11,029 bases of DNA from a virus (Duplodnaviria; Heunggongvirae; Uroviricota; Caudoviricetes). A program made the position numbers and the translations under genes. Below, one piece after another: positions 74 to 11,029 of the stretch. Under the pieces are notes generated by a model. The model did no database searches and had not been told where the DNA came from. It saw nothing but the letters and a program-made list of their open reading frames with translations. Within the stretch, counting starts at the first letter, position 1, and each line of letters opens with the position of its first letter. The DNA is taken from the IMG/VR virus record IMGVR_UViG_2671181094_000005. The stretch is one strand, 5' to 3'.

Positions 74-673
74 TCAGAATTTATAACCGACACCCACGAT
101 GAAACCGTCAGTGCGCCAGTCACCACTGCCGGAACCTTCATAAGCAATATCAATGGCCACGGATTCGGTCGGGTTAAACTGCACGCCAGCCCCCCACGCC
201 AGAGACGTGTTGCTGTGGCGACCGTCATCACTTCCGGTCAGCACATCGTGCGTTTTCCCCTTGTTGTCAGTTACGCGGAGATAATCCCCGGAGAAAGTCG
301 ACACACGGCTGTAAGCCACACCCGCCATCGCATACGCGCTGAACCATTCATTCACGCGCACAGACGGCCCCGCCATCACGCTGAACCAGCGGTTACGCAC
401 GGAATCCTCATGCCAGCGGGTATCGCTGTAATGCGTTTTTTGCTCATCTTCAGCGTTGGCATAACTGAATGACGTAATCAGCCCCAGCGTGTCCGTAAAC
501 TCATAACGGTATTTCACGTTAATCCCGTTCAGATCATCACTACCGGGAACGTTCGTCGAGGCATGAAGATACCCTGCGCTCAGTGTGGCCTGCTGCTCAG
601 ACGCCCATGCAGGCGCACCGGATACGGCCAGACAGATGGCTGCGGACAAAATGGCTGCACAAACTTTACGCAT
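74..673 (-). CDS. lom: Lom outer membrane protein (Ail/Lom/PagC family beta-barrel), lambda Lom homolog
   Basis: 199-aa ORF, ATG at 673 preceded by GAGAGGTAA Shine-Dalgarno. N-terminal signal peptide (MRKVCAAILSAAICLAVSGAPAWA). Near-colinear with lambda Lom as recalled from memory (e.g. ...GINVKYRYEFTDTLG..., ...SVMAGPSVRVNEWFSAYAMAGVAYSRV..., C-terminal GFIVGVGYKF). Located immediately after J as in lambda. Confidence 0.9.
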   Translation of the reverse strand: MRKVCAAILSAAICLAVSGAPAWASEQQATLSAGYLHASTNVPGSDDLNGINVKYRYEFTDTLGLITSFSYANAEDEQKTHYSDTRWHEDSVRNRWFSVMAGPSVRVNEWFSAYAMAGVAYSRVSTFSGDYLRVTDNKGKTHDVLTGSDDGRHSNTSLAWGAGVQFNPTESVAIDIAYEGSGSGDWRTDGFIVGVGYKF

Positions 674-740: not shown

Positions 741-3185
741 TCAGCTGATACTGATACCTGCTGTGGATTTCTTCATCACCACAACCAGCAAATCACTGAT
801 ACTGGCTGTGGGATACCAGTCATTTACCAGCCACGCTGATACCGAAAACTCCAGCGTCATGTGACCGTGACCGGCAGGCATATCAATAACACCTGTATAA
901 ACCAGCGTATTATCCAGCGCGGTACGGTTATAAATTTCAGCACCGTTTTTCTTCACTATCAGGCGGCATGACGAATAAATATCGTTATTCTCCCGCTCAT
1001 GTTTAGCGTCACGAAACGCCACCGTGGGAATAACAATCTGCCGGTCAAACGGCTGATCGTCATAAACCCTGACGGTAATGGTCCCTGATGGCCACCGCTC
1101 CGGTGCACGGGAGTCCCGGGGGAAAGCTTTGCCCACTGTTTTAACGAGATCGCCTTCAATCTGGTTCGCAGACAGTTTTCCCAGAACCCGACAGTTTTCA
1201 TTTATCGTGACATTGTTGAGCGTCCCGGCGTTCGCATTCACACTGCCACTGATATCCGCATTTTTCGCCGTCAGTCGCCCGTCCGGTGTAAGGGAAAATG
1301 CAGGAGGATTACCGCCGCTGGTAATGGTGGGAGCCGTCAGGCGTTTCAGGAACACGTCGTTCATGAATATCTGATCACCCTGACCAACAAACATCGGCTT
1401 TGTGTTGCCATTCGCAGGATTAATCATCGCAATCCTGTCTGCCGCCAGCAGCACCTGACTCTGCATTCCTGCTGGCGTATTCTCAATACCGGCACCGATA
1501 CCCGCAATATAAAGGCGTCCGTCCTGCATCTGCTGCAGTTTCACGGCCCACATGCTGTTCAGGTTATTATTTGTATCAACCTGAACCTTCTGTATCTGCT
1601 GGATCGCTGCACTCTGGTCTTCCAGTTTCTTATTGACGGTCTGTGTGATTTCATTGCTGACATCCGTAATGGATGTCCTGATTTCAGCCAGGTCAGGCGC
1701 AAGCTGACCGTTATCAATCTGCGTCCACAGCTCCTGAGCCAGATGGGTTTTCCCTATCTCGCCTTTGAAAAAATCCAGATAGCCGGATGCGTCATCACTC
1801 GGCTGACCAACAGCCTCCACGAATGCCGATTTGCCAACGGTGTTCACACTGCGGATATAAAAGTAATAATCATGGCCCGGTTTGATATTGATACTGGCGG
1901 CTATCCAGTACAGCCCCGCACCAAGGTAGCGGGCTGTGGTTTCAACCTGCCTGATATCGGTAATCCGCGTTTCCGAGAACCAGAACTCAAACTGTACCGT
2001 CGGATCATAAACCGCAAGATGCGGCGTGGCAGTTATCTGAAAATAGCCCGGCGTCAGCTCAATCCGCGACGGTGCTACCGGTGCGGCAATCCGGAACGAT
2101 ACCGACGCCGGATCGCCCTGCTGTCCCCACGCATTTACCGCCCGGACTGTCAGCGTGTACCGTCCCAGCGCCAGTTGCGTGAAGCGGTATGTGGTTTCTG
2201 TCGTCCGGGCCGTGCTGACCAGCCGCTCACTGCCGTCGTCCGCTGCCACGGTCAGGCGAAGCATAAAGCTCACCCCCTTCACCACCTTCGGCGTGTCCCA
2301 GCGGGCCAGTACCTGATACTCCCCGCTGTCTGCGGTGACTTCGGCAGTCAGGTGCTGCACCGCTGGCGGCGTGACACCATTCACCGTGCCGCTCTGGTCG
2401 CCGTCAAAGTGCGCCCCGTTATCCACGATGGCCTCTTTTTCCGGCACATGCTGCACGGCGGTGATGGCATACGTGCCGTCGTCGTTCTCACGGATACTCA
2501 CGCAGCGGAACAGTCGCTGGCGCAGCGTCGGCAGCTTCAGCCCCCATACGCTGTATTCAGCAACACCGTCAGGAACACGGCTCACTTTTACCTTCACGCC
2601 GTCGGTGACGGACTGAACCTCCACGCTGACCGGACTCCCCTGCCCGTCAACCAGGCTTATCAGCGTGGTGCCGGAAGATGGCAGCGTGATTTCACGGTCG
2701 AGCGTCAGCGTCCGGGTCTGGCTGTTTACCGCCAGCACGCGCCCGCCGGTGCTGATACCGGCATAGTCATCATCGCAGATTTCAATGACATCGCCCGGTA
2801 CATGGCGAAGCCCTTCAGCACCCACGCTGAAATCCACGGTCTGCGTCTCCAGCAGTTCCGTTTTAATCAGCCACAGCCCGGCGCGGTGTGCCTGCCCCCG
2901 GCTGGTACAGCCAAAGGCATCCATCTTCGTGACATTACGACCGTAACGGGCAATGGCCTGCGTATCTTCAACAAGCTCTGTCGCCGTCTCCCAGCCGTTG
3001 TTCGGGTCAATCCAGTTCACCTCAACGGCATTATGGCGGTCCTTCAGGGCGCTGAAGCTGTAGCGGAACGGCGCGCCATCATCCGGCATCACCACATTAC
3101 TGCGGTTATAGGTCCACACCTTATCTGATGGTCGGTCCTGCACGAACGTCAGCGTCTGCCCGTTCCATACCGGCATACAGCGCAT
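741..3185 (-). pseudogene. J: Tail tip / host specificity protein J, N-terminally truncated (C-terminal ~815 codons only)
   Basis: Long minus-strand ORF whose translation from [22 protein letters not shown] onward is colinear with roughly residues 318-1132 of lambda gpJ (recalled from memory, identity not computed), including the fibronectin-III-like central region; the last ~130 residues diverge. Upstream of codon MRCMP the same frame hits a stop (3225-3227) and the preceding sequence is terminase-derived in another frame, so the J N-terminal third is absent. The ATG at 3212 in the ORF track is fortuitous. Confidence 0.8.
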
Positions 3186-3186
3186 C

Positions 3187-3519
3187 ACTGGCTTTAAAGG
3201 GATCCGGTTCATTACGGTAGCCGGTCATGGCATCCATGGCTGGCTGAAAATATTCACCGCAGTGCGGACATGGCCAGTACCAGCGGCGGCGGTCACCACG
3301 ATTGTAAAGGGAAAGAATACCAGTCGTCGGTGGCGCTTCATGAGGCGACTTACGTCGCCATTTGCTGTCGCAGATGTCACGTCCCGGCGAGCTCTCCACC
3401 AGAGTCATCCCGGCGGACATAAATGTGGTGGTACGTTTTGAGGCCTGGGAGAAACCATCACCCTCGCTGTCGATATTCTCCGGAAAACGGTCGTAATCGG
3501 TTAAGGCGACAAACCGGTA
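3187..3519 (-). pseudogene. Terminase large subunit (lambda gpA-like) internal fragment
   Basis: Translation ...YRFVALTDYDRFPENIDSEGDGFSQASKR...WYWPCPHCGEYFQP... resembles the middle of lambda gpA (DDDIEQEGSPTFLGDKR ... HVACPHCGEEQYLKFGD, zinc-finger-like CPHCGE motif), recalled from memory. No proper start codon; frame differs from the upstream Nu1-like fragment and the downstream J fragment. The 99-aa track ORF 3121..3420 is the tail of this frame running into J-derived DNA. Confidence 0.55.
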
Positions 3520-3665
3520 ACGGGGTTCCCCCTGACAGTCGCAGCCACAGGAGTGTTGGCCGCGAGGAGCCGTTTTTTTACTGTGTCCCGGTGAAGCCCA
3601 AAGGCCTCGGCGATTTTAAAAACACTCCAGTAATAAGCATCACCGATCCCGCTCACATTTGACAT
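3501..3665 (-). pseudogene. Terminase small subunit (Nu1-like) N-terminal fragment, 54 codons
   Basis: ATG at 3665 with GGAG 6 nt upstream; translation MSNVSGIGDAYYWSVFKIAEAFGLHRDTVKKRLLAANTPVAATVRGNPVTGLSP* has an N-terminal helix-turn-helix-like segment positioned like that of lambda Nu1, and lies about 198 bp downstream of a cosN-like sequence. Full-length Nu1 is about 180 aa, so this is truncated. Hand-translated; not in the supplied ORF track (below its length cutoff). Confidence 0.5.
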
Positions 3666-3875
3666 AAGCAACTCCATCTGGCAGGTGAAAATCAGGTTTA
3701 TTTATATATTTCAATTAATTGCAAACTAGTCTAATGACAGGGAGAAAAAAATATTGTACAGCTGAAAAGAGAAATAACTTTTTAATTATCAATAAATTAC
3801 CAAACATGCTGCCGCCGCCATGGAAATGCAAAAACTAGCCTTTTTCCGCGACGCTCCCGCCCCGTGGCAGGGACC
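3666..3875 (-). other. Candidate cos site (cosN-like core plus AT-rich cosB-like region) upstream of the Nu1-like fragment
   Basis: Minus-strand sequence GGGCGGGAGCGTCGCGG (plus 3846-3862) resembles the lambda cohesive-end region GGGCGGCGACCTCGCGG (13 of 17 by eye). It is followed by AT-rich DNA and sits about 198 bp upstream of the Nu1-like start, versus about 190 bp in lambda. Similarity is partial and judged from memory. Confidence 0.35.
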
Positions 3876-4228
3876 CCCACTGGGAGGACCCGACAGCCTG
3901 ACAACCGTGACGAGCATCTGAAACAGAGCTTTACATAATGGCATGGGGATAATTCAGAAGGACATCACAGCATGCCCACACAAATTAGTGTGAGTGTCCT
4001 GTTTCTTACTACGCGCAGGACTGACGAGCATGAGGGGAAAATACGAGAACCGAAATGCCTTATCTTCAGAAATGCAGCCGGCATCCGAACTGGACGATAT
4101 TGTAAATTCACCTAAATACGAGGCATTGCTGTAGTTGAATTGCATTGCTGTATTAGCCTGACAGTGACAGAATACGATATTGACTCTGTCACTTGTGAAA
4201 TGGTCAGAATGGTTAGCAGTTATGGTGA

Positions 4229-4435
4229 TCAGTCAACCACCAGGGAATAATCCTTCGTATTCTTATCGTGCTTTACTAACGCGGCCTCAATTGCCCTGAA
4301 TGCTTCCAGAGACACTTGATGTTCTATACATGCAATTACAACATCCGGGTAACCCATCGAAATGGTGCTATTAAGCATAGTTTTTACACGAACCTGCTCC
4401 TGGGAGGGGGCATCAGTGTATTGATCTTTATGCAT
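4229..4435 (-). CDS. Hypothetical small prophage protein (68 aa)
   Basis: ORF with ATG at 4435 and GGAG about 7 nt upstream; AT-rich moron region between cos and the GnsB-like gene. No family recognised with confidence. Confidence 0.45.
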
Positions 4436-4728: not shown

Positions 4729-4902
4729 CTAGATTAAATCAATCTTGATATCATAGCTTTCAAGACCAGTCATTTTTTCCCGTGCAGTAAACTGGATACT
4801 GGTAACTTCTTTCCCGGTCTTTTTCTTAAGCTCAATGATTTTTTTTGTTATATATTCAGAAATATCTGCTTCTATTTTTGTTTTTAACTCTTCAATGTTC
4901 AT
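4729..4902 (-). CDS. GnsA/GnsB family protein (57 aa), diverged GnsB-like paralog
   Basis: Translation from the second ATG (4902): MNIEELKTKIEADISEYITKKIIELKKKTGKEVTSIQFTAREKMTGLESYDIKIDLI, colinear with E. coli GnsA/GnsB (MNIEELKKQAETEIADFIAQKIAELNKNTGKEVSEIRFTAREKMTGLESYDVKIKIM, from memory). AGAGGA Shine-Dalgarno upstream; the ORF-track start at 4995 is an upstream in-frame extension. Confidence 0.7.
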   Translation of the reverse strand: MNIEELKTKIEADISEYITKKIIELKKKTGKEVTSIQFTAREKMTGLESYDIKIDLI

Positions 4903-5074
4903 CATTTCCTCTTTTAGTCTGTTATGACTTTCCTGGTACACAGTAGTGTCAATTATATGGAGCAAACGTATAAAAGATAAGATGAAACATCGCAATAATC
5001 AACATACGACGGTCTAAATTTCACACAAACAGATAAAGATGATTATCATTTATTATCAATGCATTAGAATCAAA

Positions 5075-5266
5075 TCAATTCAAGAGTCTCATTGCTGCTT
5101 CCAGAATTTCTTCTGAAGTTACATGTCGATCCGCTGCTACATAAATGACTTTATGATCTCCGGTCAGAGATGGAAACCCTGCAGCCATTACAGTGAGGTG
5201 TGTTGTTTCGCCATTTGGATATTCACGCATGATGGTGTTAACTCCGGTCATCACTGGCACTACCAT
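5075..5266 (-). CDS. Hypothetical small protein (63 aa) between cspI and the GnsB-like gene; possibly a YnfN/YmcE-position gene
   Basis: ORF with ATG at 5266 but no clear Shine-Dalgarno. Its position between a csp gene and a gns gene mirrors the cspG-ymcE-gnsA and cspI-ynfN-gnsB arrangements recalled for E. coli K-12. The call is positional only; the sequence is not recognised. Confidence 0.3.
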   Translation of the reverse strand: MVVPVMTGVNTIMREYPNGETTHLTVMAAGFPSLTGDHKVIYVAADRHVTSEEILEAAMRLLN

Positions 5267-5348
5267 TGCTGGTTCAGAGTTAAAAAAACTATTATTTTTT
5301 TCATAATGTTACCGTAATATGTGAGTATCCATCGACTAGACACTAAGC

Positions 5349-5369
5349 AAAAAAGCTCCCGAAGGAGCC
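5349..5369 (-). terminator. Rho-independent terminator (UUCG tetraloop hairpin plus U6)
   Basis: Minus strand reads AGGCTCC-TTCG-GGAGC-TTTTTT: 5-bp GC stem, UUCG tetraloop, six U. About 200 nt downstream of the cspI stop and about 80 nt upstream of the 63-aa ORF. Confidence 0.5.
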
Positions 5370-5575
5370 TTCATTTTCACTTTCTTAAATCTAACGATAG
5401 ACGGCTAACATTTAAGTATTGTGAAATATTATCAAATGTAATCATCATTGATTTACAAAAGATACATTTTGCCCCGAAAGGATTCCTGTCAGAAACATCA
5501 AAAGATGATGTTCTATACTGAGAACCATGGCAACACGGGCATCTAAAGTGAATATGGTTTGTAATATTTTCTACC

Positions 5576-5788
5576 TCAAAGTGCCACAACATGAACAGCC
5601 GCGGGGCCTTTAGGTCCGTTCTCAATACCAAATTCGACTTCCTGATTCTCAGTTAACGTTTTGAAATCGTTGCTCTGAATAGCTGAGAAATGGACAAACA
5701 CATCTTTGCTACCATCTTTCGGCGTGATGAAACCAAAACCTTTTTCAGGGTTAAACCATTTCACTAAACCAGTCATTGTGTTAGACAT
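5576..5788 (-). CDS. cspI: Cold shock protein, CspA family (CspI-like)
   Basis: 70-aa product [70 protein letters not shown] matches recalled CspI almost exactly, with RNP1 (KGFGFI) and RNP2 (VFVHF) motifs. AAAGGTAATA sequence ahead of the start as in cspA. Alternative ATG one codon upstream at 5791. Confidence 0.85.
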
Positions 5789-6151: not shown

Positions 6152-7179
<1,028 letters not shown>

Positions 7180-7292
7180 GGATATTTATCAGGATTTATC
7201 GGCTTCAAATCCCCGGATATGTTAAATCTTACCTCACCAGTGATGGGCACTGGCGGGAGGAGGATGTCAATCTGATAAACACAGAGGCGACT

Positions 7293-7553
7293 ATGGATTA
7301 CACAAATCTACCTAAACAAACTTTTGCTGATTTAATCGCACTCAGGCAAGCAGTCGTAGCTCTAATCAACTTGTTGCCGGAGAAGGAAAAGGAATTAGTT
7401 AAAGCGCTTCTTAACAGAACTGCCGCCGATTTTTCATCATATCCACTGACAGATGACCTTGCGGACCTTCCTGAATTAATTGCAGCGTCCGCCAATAAGC
7501 TTACTGAAGAGATTTACCCTCCTCAAAAATCTTCACAAAATTCCTGCGAGTAA
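7293..7553 (+). CDS. Hypothetical small acidic protein (86 aa) on the opposite strand inside the lysis cassette
   Basis: ATG at 7293 preceded by ACAGAGG Shine-Dalgarno at 5-nt spacing; stop at 7551-7553 followed about 20 nt later by a hairpin plus T8. Predicted helical, net acidic. Uses several rare codons (CTA, AGG, AGA) and overlaps the 3' end of the convergent DUF1327 ORF by 53 bp, so coding status is uncertain. Confidence 0.4.
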   Translation: MDYTNLPKQTFADLIALRQAVVALINLLPEKEKELVKALLNRTAADFSSYPLTDDLADLPELIAASANKLTEEIYPPQKSSQNSCE

Positions 7554-8052
7554 CTTCAATGCAATAATCGTAAAACGCCGCAAACTGCTCATCGCGGCGT
7601 TTTTTTTCATCTTCAGAAGGAATCAGCACCGACAATTTTTTATTCAGATCAGCGACGCTGCCCTCCAGTTTTTCAATGGGCGATTCAATATCATCTTTTT
7701 CTGACCGCAATGCCGTCGGTGGCGTCTTCAGAGAACCAGTAATTCTTCCCGGTAGCTTTCCTTTGTAGGTTATCCACACATTCTGCGCCTCTAAAATTAT
7801 GGGGCGCTTTTCCGGCGACTGCTCATCCCCTTCACATAACCCGGCAGCAACATCCAGGAAGACCTGTCTGATGCTCCTTCTGGCTGCTGCCTCATAAAAC
7901 TCCAGCGCGGCACCTTCAACACGGTCCAGCGAGATGTCCAGGTCAAAAATTTCACCGTCAAAGTGTTTTTTGTCCCGTAAGGCTACAGTTACCGCCACTT
8001 TATTCTCAAAATTGCGAACTCCTTTCACAACCAGTTCATAGTCTTGAGTCAT
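7501..8052 (-). CDS. DUF1327 (YdfR-like) lysis-cassette protein, apparently with a C-terminal extension (183 aa)
   Basis: ATG at 8052, 4 nt after the holin stop. The N-terminal ~70 residues (MTQDYELVVKGVRNFENKV...EGAALEFYEAAARRS.RQVF) resemble E. coli YdfR as recalled; the remaining ~110 residues are not recognised. The ORF-track start at 8073 overlaps the holin and is less likely. Confidence 0.6.
   Translation of the reverse strand: MTQDYELVVKGVRNFENKVAVTVALRDKKHFDGEIFDLDISLDRVEGAALEFYEAAARRSIRQVFLDVAAGLCEGDEQSPEKRPIILEAQNVWITYKGKLPGRITGSLKTPPTALRSEKDDIESPIEKLEGSVADLNKKLSVLIPSEDEKKRRDEQFAAFYDYCIEVTRRNFVKIFEEGKSLQ
7575..7607 (+). terminator. Rho-independent terminator-like hairpin after the plus-strand small ORF
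   Basis: Stem ACGCCGC (7575-7581) / GCGGCGT (7594-7600), 12-nt loop, then 8 T (7600-7607). Lies inside the coding sequence of the minus-strand DUF1327 ORF; on the minus strand only 4 U follow the stem. Confidence 0.4.
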
Positions 8053-8056
8053 TGGA

Positions 8057-8272
8057 TTACTCTCTTCTCGCAACCTTACGCCTGTCTTCTTTAATCTTGA
8101 AATAAAGGTTTGTCAGATACGTCAGCATGCCAAATACCAGACTACCCAATACACCTATTGCCGCCCACTGTGAGGGCGTGACTTTATCGAGCAACTGTAA
8201 AAACCAGTAGCCAGCACTGCCTGCAGAGGTGCTGTAGGCGATGCCCGTTGTTAACTTATCCATGGATTTCAT
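8057..8272 (-). CDS. Class II holin, phage 21 S21-like pinholin (71 aa) with dual-start motif
   Basis: [71 protein letters not shown]: two transmembrane segments and a charged C-terminus, colinear with S21/EssD as recalled. Met1-Lys-Ser-Met4 dual-start arrangement (antiholin/holin). Strong GGAGGTGA Shine-Dalgarno 4 nt upstream of the ATG at 8272; the 99-aa track ORF is an upstream extension. Confidence 0.85.
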
Positions 8273-10732: not shown

Positions 10733-11029
10733 GGTGATGCTGCCAACTTACTGATTTAGTGTATGATGGTGTTTTTGAGGTGCTCCAGTGGCTTCTGTTT
10801 CTATCAGCTGTCCCTCCTGTTCAGCTACTGACGGGGTGGTGCGTAACGGCAAAAGCACCGCCGGACATCAGCGCTATCTCTGCTCTCACTGCCGTAAAAC
10901 ATGGCAACTGCAGTTCACTTACACCGCTTCTCAACCCGGTACGCACCAGAAAATCATTGATATGGCCATGAATGGCGTTGGATGCCGGGCAACTGCCCGC
11001 ATTATGGGCGTTGGCCTCAACACGATTTT
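10733..11029 (+). mobile_element. IS1 insertion sequence, left end (partial; continues beyond the window)
   Basis: Sequence from 10733 (GGTGATGCTGCCAACTTACTGATTTAGTGTATGATGGTGTTTTTGAGGTGCTCCAGTGGCTTCTG...) matches the IS1 left inverted repeat and the 5' part of insA as recalled. Only the left ~300 bp of the 768-bp element is in the window. Confidence 0.9.
10788..11029 (+). CDS. insA: IS1 InsA (transposition repressor / N-terminal part of InsAB' transposase), partial
   Basis: GTG start at 10788; translation (M)[79 protein letters not shown]... matches IS1 InsA with its zinc-finger Cys pairs. Truncated by the window edge. Confidence 0.85.

Follow-up and report, generated by a model that had tools for sequence, protein, structure and literature searches.

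Introduction

Qin varies in size from 11 to 97 kb across strains (PMC6379469). In Escherichia coli K-12, the prophage is arranged from its ydfJ-side end as ydfK-pinQ-tfaQ-stfQ-nohA ... gnsB-ynfN-cspI-rzpQ-rrrQ-essQ, with the Nu1-type nohA fused to or overlapping stfQ and with J and lom lost. An undeleted reference is provided by the intact Qin-type prophage, about 40 kb long, of strain 2017.20.01CC (NZ_AP027865.1) and by phages cdtI and Tritos, which carry a full 15.5-kb head and tail module.

Here we analysed a stretch of 11,029 nucleotides from IMG/VR record IMGVR_UViG_2671181094_000005 (the window). Its lineage occupies the same chromosomal locus as K-12 Qin, also has ydfK, pinQ, gnsB, ynfN, ynfQ, cspI, rzpQ, rrrQ, and essQ, and likewise shows a terminase remnant joined directly to a tail-fibre-side gene. 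In contrast to K-12 Qin, where the collapse was larger, it has a DUF1441-type small terminase (terS) stub, an island of the large terminase gene (terL), 814 codons of J, lom, and most of stf. Because the junctions of the two lineages are unrelated, their decay was independent. The 2017.20.01CC prophage, cdtI, and Tritos have the gene order of the window and 98–99% DNA identity to it across cos, terS, and the terL fragment, whereas the J and lom alleles of the intact relatives differ from those of the window (95% and 80% identity), indicating the usual lambdoid mosaicism. Phage lambda shares the order and functions of Nu1-A ... J-lom and a similar cosN core; its gpA belongs to the same Pfam and PHROG family as the window terL, and its J is 77% identical from residue 346. 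In contrast, its small terminase is of the Phage_Nu1 rather than the DUF1441 type, its Lom is only 44% identical, and the receptor-binding end of J is divergent. As described below, the segment is almost certainly a scar without a function of its own, left where a defective lambdoid prophage of the Qin type lost its structural genes in an E. coli lineage other than K-12.

Results

Two joints replace the head and tail-shaft genes

The initial annotation described Nu1-like, gpA-like, and J fragments that directly abut one another. This was borne out almost to the base, the three pieces being minus-strand parts of a small terminase gene, a large terminase gene, and J. Breakpoints had been predicted near 3186–3190 and 3500–3520, and alignment located them between 3186 and 3187 and between 3520 and 3521. 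The features of the scar are the following, with missing DNA given in coordinates of the intact relative (L004):

3851–3862, minus strand: cosN-like cohesive-end sequence GGGCGGGAGCGT (lambda counterpart GGGCGGCGACCT, from alignment to the lambda left end)
3521–3677, minus strand: terS stub, the N-terminal 52 codons (48 from an alternative ATG at 3665) of a DUF1441-type small terminase
3519–3520, no strand: junction A (terL to terS), microhomology AA, 880 bp missing (L004 20347–21226)
3187–3520, minus strand: internal terL fragment, codons 165–275 of 699, ATPase domain including the CPHCGE motif
3185–3186, no strand: junction B (J to terL), exact microhomology TC within a 9/12 imperfect patch, from base-by-base three-way comparison
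741–3186, minus strand: C-terminal J fragment, a pseudogene without the first ~345 codons; 814 codons plus stop, equivalent to lambda J 346–1132
741–3212, minus strand: chimeric 823-codon open reading frame, 9 terL codons out of frame followed by the J fragment

Alignments at both junctions had E-values of 1e-170 or better, which excludes chance. The window lacks 15,510 bp (880 + 14,630 bp) that its closest intact relative has; the portal, capsid, tail tube, tape measure, and other structural genes of this relative are absent, and terS, terL, and J are truncated. Junction maps, the intact relative, and domain matches all agree with the earlier proposal that the whole head and tail-shaft module of a decaying prophage was removed; in this lambdoid prophage, the loss went through two junctions. 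The corresponding distance in lambda had been overstated as 17–18 kb, since the start of Nu1 and codon 346 of J lie 16.35 kb apart. In the genomes carrying the scar, the region is flanked by ydfJ'/ydfK/pinQ on one side and by the Qin late region on the other, as expected for a defective Qin-type lambdoid prophage.

The fragments are indeed joined out of frame, but in two frames instead of the three first described: terS and J share one (first codon base mod 3 = 2) and terL alone departs from it (mod 3 = 0). A single functional fused gene is ruled out by the different frame of terL and by three stops that interrupt the common frame between terS and J. PGAP/RefSeq already annotates three pseudogenes at the scar. 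An assembly artefact or chimera was likewise ruled out, as the same junctions recur in 14 genomes that were finished independently of one another, and again in IMG/VR contigs, in a metagenome contig, and in hundreds of blocks of assemblies.

The terminase and J fragments

Junction A joins terL, which extends to 3520, to terS and the upstream cos region (from 3519/3521 to 3862). The terL fragment matched GpA_ATPase (PF05876) with 96 bits (cutoff 25.6; E 3.8e-27; positions 129–211 of 247) and phrog_15 at 1.9e-45, the PHROG that also contains lambda gpA, and its DNA was 98.3–98.8% identical to terL of cdtI and L004, assigning it to the gpA family of large terminases. It is out of frame with both neighbours and is listed by PGAP as a pseudogene 'missing N- and C-terminus'. 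Because the nuclease domain (PF20454, GpA_nuclease) and the Walker A region are absent, the fragment cannot be functional.

The terS stub matched phrog_141 (2.5e-9) and scored 19.3 bits for DUF1441 (PF07278), which is under the cutoff of 35.1 only because the stub has kept no more than 52 of 175 residues. A full-length relative with 98–99% identical DNA reached 151.8 bits and 7.9e-65, and the location of the stub relative to cos and terL is that expected for a small terminase, in line with membership in the DUF1441/phrog_141 family. A terminase origin of the segment 3187–3665, whose failure would have undone the first reading, is thus supported by the terL and terS alignments and by the Pfam and PHROG matches. 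The term 'Nu1-like' holds only in a loose sense, that of a remote PHROG link. While lambda Nu1 itself scores 333 bits on PF07471 (Phage_Nu1), neither the terS fragment nor its full-length relative matches this profile. BLASTP of the full-length DUF1441 relative against lambda Nu1 was not significant (E=4.6), a PDB sequence search with the full-length protein returned no significant match, and the sole tie between the two families consists of weak reciprocal PHROG cross-hits (1e-9 and 5.6e-8). The previously noted 54-codon open reading frame at 3501–3665 is real but not wholly terS: 48 codons are terS-derived, and the final ~6 come from out-of-frame reading of terL up to the stop at 3501–3503.

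Junction B stands in place of 14,630 bp of the intact L004 (L004 5383–20012). The J side, up to 3186, is 100% identical to J of phage 2B8 over 386 nt and joins lambda J at Met346, and the terL side, from 3187, is 98.3% identical to phage cdtI. The J fragment is 77% identical to lambda J over 814 aa, starting at M346 (BLASTP; lambda J 346–1131), and matches Phage-tail_3, Ig_J, Ig_J_second, Phage_Tail_Tip, and Ig_GpJ_C, all above the Pfam cutoffs, identifying it as a lambda-type tail-tip J. Its N-terminal 345 residues are gone (PGAP pseudogene 'missing N-terminus'), and no convincing Shine-Dalgarno sequence precedes either ATG 3212 or ATG 3185 of the chimeric frame. The 2.4-kb J fragment is certainly non-functional.

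Upstream of the terS stub, the cosN-like sequence is kept despite the destroyed terminase. The records of phages cdtI and Tritos begin exactly at this sequence, suggesting that 3851–3862 is the functional cos site.

A probably young scar with continuing decay

Of 5,426 complete E. coli genomes, 14 (the carriers) have both junctions, and no genome with one junction alone was found in this set. The pair is also present in one metagenome contig and four IMG/VR contigs, and public assemblies contain the junction-spanning open reading frames in 194 and 288 blocks. A scan of metagenomes revealed no single-junction intermediate, and GTDB species representatives gave zero matches for either junction. 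An identical double junction has thus been inherited across a globally spread set of genomes. Apart from one recombined patch in J, the 14 carriers differ from the window by 0–2 substitutions per gene.

Decay of the element has continued in the carriers. Depending on the genome, J is interrupted by IS1 or IS3, the C-terminus of J is gone together with lom, lom is frameshifted, the terL island has lost 11 nt, or cspI and the lysis genes have been removed through IS elements. The 823-codon J frame is open in 9 of the 14 and shortened to 434, 552, or 574 codons in the others. The IMG/VR contig L025 combines junction A with a different left joint (lom to terL 20044).

The genes flanking the scar in the window are as follows:

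74–673, minus strand: lom, full-length Ail/Lom outer-membrane protein, 199 aa, intact
5576–5788, minus strand: cspI cold-shock gene, intact (identical DNA annotated as CspI, WP_000072434.1)
6152–8272, minus strand: lysis region (PGAP annotation of identical DNA, strain 127, as for the four entries below)
6152–6649, minus strand: rzpQ
6646–7179, minus strand: rrrQ lysozyme
7717–8052, minus strand: ydfR-like pseudogene, truncated
8057–8272, minus strand: essQ holin

Lom matched Ail_Lom (PF06316) over its full length (422.5 bits, 1–199 of 199), confirming it as an Ail/Lom outer-membrane protein, and the same DNA is annotated as an intact CDS (WP_001233123.1). The initial view that the neighbours of the scar are intact was correct for lom, rrrQ, rzpQ, essQ, and cspI, which are identical to RefSeq-intact CDSs, but not for ynfN, which is frameshifted, or for the truncated ydfR-like gene. 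Among the carriers, lom is intact in 10 of 14, with a frameshift in KFu024 and deletions in three; it is also truncated in AST19 and in L025.

A recurrent breakpoint in terL

The terL endpoint of the 880-bp joint lies within the hexamer GGTAAT (terL codons 164–165, window 3516–3520), and three to five independent rearrangements share this endpoint:

Window type: terL...GGTAA joined to terS codon 53
GPEC87-32-644: terL...GGTAA joined to inverted capsid
AST19: terL...GGTAAT joined to terS codon ~17
KFu019: stf joined to GGTAAT...
E24377A: stf joined to TAATCC...

The remnants in KFu019, E24377A, AST19, and GPEC87-32-644 lie at the same locus and belong to the same prophage family, but differ in their partners (stf, terS codon ~17, or inverted capsid) and in the side of terL that was kept, and none of them has junction B. 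With the 70-nt sequence L004 20312–20381 as reference, a truncation within ±21 nt of the GGTAAT site was observed in 27 of 761 genomes, compared to 0 of 754 at a control position 160 nt away and 1 of 750 at the other end of the terL island. The loci inspected among the 27 were 18, those of the 14 carriers and the four strains above.

Several local causes of the recurrence were considered. A hairpin is not supported, as folding at the GGTAAT site is not unusual (z = -0.3); a 12-bp hairpin (z = -3.3) is instead found at the second terL-island boundary, the one broken in only 1 of 750 genomes. GGTAAT is the IS1 terminus, but only the six terminal bases match the IS1 inverted repeat and the KFu019 junction alone fits an IS1 pseudo-end, which was therefore rejected as a general explanation. 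A pseudo-site for a Pin/Gin-type invertase, judged by sequence inspection against the consensus, has the left half-site AAACC, but a crossover at the central dinucleotide would not give the recombinant sequences observed. Finally, IMG/VR scans with altered-base patterns on both sides, which bear on an inserted element with a 5-bp target duplication, gave only the window-type joint and E24377A.

Discussion

The scar almost certainly arose in a complete prophage that carried, on the minus strand, cos, terS (DUF1441), terL (gpA family), portal, capsid, tail, J, lom, and stf. Two illegitimate joints, apparently independent of RecA and each with 2 bp of microhomology, removed 880 bp from terS codon 53 to terL codon 164 and 14,630 bp from terL codon 276 to J codon 345. 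A 334-bp island of terL was thereby stranded, with the 5' stub of terS on one side and two-thirds of J, its 3' part, on the other. The intact relative in 2017.20.01CC occupies the same site (ydfJ side to rspB), is colinear from terS and terL to J and lom, and has exactly 880 + 14,630 bp extra. Slipped or template-switch replication or microhomology end joining could account for such joints, although 2 bp at each is only weakly above chance, as an estimated 16% or so of random joints would have at least 2 bp.

Because no single-junction genome was found, speaking of two sequential deletions, as opposed to one complex event, rests on parsimony. It is rather unlikely that both joints formed at once, by template switching from terS to terL, copying of 334 nt, and a further switch to J. 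Short microhomologies would fit such an event, as would the lack of single-junction intermediates in the 5,426 genomes, the one metagenome contig, and the public-assembly places shown. In GPEC87-32-644, moreover, a near-identical terL island (L004 20040–20346) lies inverted between capsid and dicB, which is typical of template switching. However, missing intermediates are equally expected from a young lineage, L025 pairs junction A with another left joint, and in AST19 the terL endpoint is shared while the partners on either side of it are different, so that the junction-A side can occur where junction B does not; the L025 joint itself fits either order of events. A possible, if still doubtful, origin of junction A is a site-specific break at GGTAAT instead of random slippage, whose ends were then joined to arbitrary partners by microhomology; such a break might come from a transposase or homing endonuclease that targets the site, from a cut with a 5-bp stagger, or from replication arrest there. 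The use of GGTAAT by five different junctions and its excess of broken genomes over both controls favour this explanation, and left-kept ends that stop at L004 20344–20346 and right-kept ends that start at 20342–20344 resemble a 5-bp target duplication. On the other hand, neither the inspected loci nor IMG/VR showed an IS, an intron, or an endonuclease gene at this position, the local hairpin is unremarkable, and the inspected loci come from 18 of the 27 genomes. The number of independent events may be as low as three if E24377A comes from a KFu019-like form and AST19 from an ancestor with junction A only.

The intact genes beside the scar had been taken to suggest selective retention, which the locus does not support: the carriers are near-identical and the dead J fragment is about as intact (open in 9 of 14) as lom (intact in 10 of 14). 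It is unlikely that deletions were favoured against costly or lethal morphogenesis genes while purifying selection held lom, the lysis cassette, and cspI. In its favour, cspI and the lysis genes are present in 13 of the 14 carriers, the same block is found in K-12 Qin and in the intact relative, and three IS2 insertions in the cspI-lysis region fell between genes and not within them; purifying selection on defective-prophage genes is also said to have been described by Bobay, Touchon and Rocha (PNAS, 2014). Yet IS2 splits the holin from the endolysin in three carriers, the whole cspI-lysis block is gone from BKQ37E, K-12 Qin has no lom, and lom has been disrupted independently at least as often per kb (2 events in 0.6 kb) as J (3 events in 2.4 kb). 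With 0–2 substitutions per gene among carriers, neutral decay had no time to act and intactness is expected from recency alone, so that lom, the lysis cassette, and cspI appear to be intact mainly through the recency of the event. Very improbable is a satellite-like element that keeps cos to be packaged by a helper with a matching terminase, with structural-gene loss as adaptive piracy. The cosN-like site and its upstream region are retained intact beside the terS stub, but this is the default when a deletion begins 150 nt inside terS; neither the window nor the carrier annotations showed hallmark genes of satellites, and the element is a typical Qin remnant with many IS elements.

The double-joint scar is ordinary, known prophage decay. 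Its value is that of a clean, base-resolved example with an intact relative at the same locus, in which a double scar was inherited by a worldwide lineage and later IS insertions, deletions, and gene conversion are all visible. It also cautions that intact neighbouring genes are no evidence of selection when a scar is young. With low probability, GGTAAT may in addition be a nucleotide-precise, recurrent breakpoint that inactivates Qin-type prophages. If so, a sequence-specific DNA-breaking or fork-arresting activity would act on terL, for instance at the target of a mobile endonuclease or of a transposase with a 5-bp stagger. Such an activity would seed deletions of the structural module in several E. 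coli lineages and would constitute a defined molecular mechanism that grounds lambdoid prophages.

Organization of the collapsed module

By comparison with complete E. coli genomes, the window is assigned to a Qin-type lambdoid prophage remnant, of which it forms part. In the 14 complete E. coli genomes that have both junctions described here (carriers), the gene order is ydfJ', ynfT, ydfK, pinQ, tail-fibre remnants, lom, J', terL', terS' and a 68-aa hypothetical gene, then gnsB, ynfN, ynfQ, cspI, rzpQ, rrrQ, ydfR', essQ, an AraC-like regulator, ybgA, a lipocalin gene and Q. K-12 Qin shares the outer genes and differs in the centre. terS, terL, J, lom and the other genes of interest all lie on the minus strand. 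The fragments and neighbouring features are:

up to 3186, minus strand: J fragment, starting at lambda J Met346 and running 814 codons to the natural stop
3187-3520, minus strand: terL island, codons 165-275 of 699 (phage cdtI terL coordinates); Pfam GpA_ATPase, 96 bits
3519/3521-3862, minus strand: terS fragment and upstream sequence; terS measures 157 nt counted from the ATG annotated in cdtI (3677) or 145 nt counted from the one that PGAP prefers (3665)
3862-3851, minus strand: lambda-like cosN, GGGCGGGAGCGT, surviving with its flanks despite destruction of both terminase genes; the first base of the cdtI and Tritos phage records is the start of this cosN-like site
4229-4435: conserved 68-aa ORF between cos and gnsB (phrog_657, E 4.6e-48), present in the intact prophage of strain 2017.20.01CC and in 13 of 14 carriers, frameshifted in BKQ37E
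5075-5304: ynfN, frameshifted (PGAP annotation of identical DNA)
7256-7891: segment without counterpart in the intact prophage
7717-8052: ydfR-like gene between holin and endolysin, truncated (same PGAP source)
10733-11029: IS1 copy, inserted just beyond ybgA, inside which the window ends

Megablast of positions 2900-3900 against phage genomes returned a J part up to 3186, identical (100%) to phage 2B8 across the 386 nt aligned beside the J-terL joint (junction B), and a terminase part starting near 3181, which has 98.5-98.8% identity to phages cdtI and Tritos. Pairwise BLAST and base-by-base display fixed the segments and placed junction B at 3186/3187 and the terL-terS joint (junction A) at 3520/3521, bearing out the coordinates and breakpoints of the initial annotation. 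Its reading of abutted small-terminase, large-terminase and J fragments was correct apart from small details, one being the three reading frames that it proposed: terS (first-codon positions 3677/3665) and J (3185/3212) share a common frame (mod 3 = 2) with three stops between them, and terL alone (3519, mod 3 = 0) is shifted. The terS ORF continues six codons into terL, out of frame, and stops at 3501. The label "Nu1-like" for the small terminase holds only in a loose sense. The fragment belongs to DUF1441/phrog_141 and lambda Nu1 to PF07471/phrog_57, and BLASTP of a full-length terS relative against lambda Nu1 gave no significant match (E 4.6), but weak PHROG cross-matches in both directions (1e-9 and 5.6e-8) make the two types distant relatives with the same role.

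Extent of the loss and formation of the joints

An intact relative occupies the same locus, adjoining rspB, in E. coli 2017.20.01CC (NZ_AP027865.1; L004), with the order int-xis-exo-dicB...Q-lysis-cspI-gnsB-cos-terS-terL-portal-capsid-tail-J-lom-stf. Compared with L004, the window lacks 20347-21226 (880 bp) and 5383-20012 (14,630 bp), a total of 15,510 bp. In lambda, where the corresponding separation was previously put at roughly 17-18 kb, J codon 346 (16,540) lies 16.35 kb beyond the Nu1 start (191).

The microhomology sought at the joints is present but minimal in length, namely an exact TC at junction B (3185-3186), within a 9/12 patch, and AA at junction A (3519-3520). Because no IS was found at either junction and microhomology is minimal at both, illegitimate recombination is indicated, and both joints would have arisen by slippage during replication, a template switch or end joining at microhomology. 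We found no single-junction intermediate among the complete E. coli genomes, GTDB species representatives and metagenomes scanned, so that either successive deletions or a single complex event would fit. An IMG/VR contig (L025) has junction A with a different left joint, lom being fused to terL at L004 20044; the surroundings of the island have thus been remodelled further, in a way that fits either order of the two joints.

A recurrent breakpoint in terL

Truncated matches to a 70-nt intact-sequence probe centred on the terL end of junction A (window 3516-3520; L004 20342-20346) were found in 27 of 761 genomes, compared with 0 of 754 for a control probe 160 nt away and 1 of 750 for the other island end. 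The arrangements were read from 18 of the truncated genomes, namely the 14 carriers, GPEC87-32-644, AST19, KFu019 and E24377A. Five junctions with different partners, including junction A, all fall inside GGTAAT (L004 20342-20347), with left-kept ends stopping at 20344-20346 and right-kept ends beginning at 20342-20344. In GPEC87-32-644 the terL remnant ends at the same base as in junction A and is joined instead to an inverted capsid gene. AST19, with 988 bp deleted, joins terL...GGTAAT to terS near codon 17, while its island abuts lom on the other side. In KFu019, stf abuts GGTAATCC..., leaving terS intact with terL codons 1-165. In E24377A, stf abuts TAATCC... in an in-frame terL-stf fusion; this annotated CDS (4778-5494 of its locus, L024) combines terL codons 1-165 with the C-terminal part of a side tail-fibre gene and is listed, as intact, under the name "terminase large subunit family protein" (238 aa). 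The E24377A form could be a 424-bp secondary deletion, between TAATC repeats, of a KFu019-like form, and AST19 could derive from an ancestor with junction A only; the independent events at GGTAAT thus number a minimum of three and as many as five.

No IS, intron or endonuclease gene was found at the site in the inspected loci and IMG/VR, and hairpin prediction there gave nothing unusual (z = -0.3). The IS1 ends and Pin crossover sites fit the breakpoint poorly. A second island boundary, at window 3218 (L004 20044, between GGTA and GCCGGTCATGG), is common to GPEC87-32-644 and L025. A 12-bp DNA hairpin (dG -9.4 kcal/mol, z -3.3) has its 5' foot at this boundary, which is broken in only 1 of 750 complete genomes.

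Distribution and continuing decay

Among 5,426 complete genomes, probes of 120 nt across junctions B and A matched in full in the identical 14. These carriers were isolated from dogs, pigs, humans, river water and salad and span four continents; the terminase allele of the window occurs in about 760-790 genomes. Both junctions are also present in four IMG/VR contigs and in a single contig from a gut metagenome. The ORFs spanning them are recorded in public assemblies (194 and 288 blocks), and wherever locations were displayed the two occurred together. Neither was found among GTDB species representatives.

As first reported, lom and cspI are intact in the window, as are the lysis genes (rzpQ, rrrQ, essQ), from which selective retention had been proposed. 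Outside one patch, the carriers differ from the window by 0-2 substitutions per gene; the arrangement is therefore young, and intactness is uninformative on selection. The J fragment, which cannot function, is an uninterrupted 823-codon ORF in 9 of 14 carriers; it is cut by IS1 in BKQ37E and by IS3 in NRZ96606, and a further deletion takes lom as well in 2017-03-3CC, 04A19CPO007 and Ec-U7. lom is intact in 10 of 14 carriers and frameshifted in KFu024. The loss in BKQ37E extends from ynfN through rspA and takes in both cspI and the lysis genes, and IS2 splits essQ from rrrQ in three carriers. Given this youth, the equally open dead J and these losses, the locus lends selective retention no support, although the general idea is plausible from the literature. 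The size of Qin differs between strains, with a range of 11 to 97 kb (PMC6379469).

IS1, IS2 and IS3 also occupy many other positions in the remnant, varying between carriers. The BKQ37E island carries an 11-nt deletion (window-equivalent 3315-3325), so the island itself is still decaying. Among the otherwise near-identical carriers, a patch in the J C-terminal region (window ~711-1674, extending to 2727 in one carrier) diverges by 4-7% (59-94 substitutions). This pattern indicates that other lambdoid J genes have donated sequence to the dead fragment by gene conversion; as these donors are functional alleles, the ORF stays open.

RefSeq/PGAP already calls each of the three fragments a pseudogene ("phage tail tip protein, missing N-terminus"; "phage terminase large subunit, missing N- and C-terminus"; "DUF1441 family/terminase, missing C-terminus"), and the feature is therefore known in databases. 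As such it is a known case of ordinary prophage decay, in which the recurrent terL breakpoint is the sole element that might repay more work.
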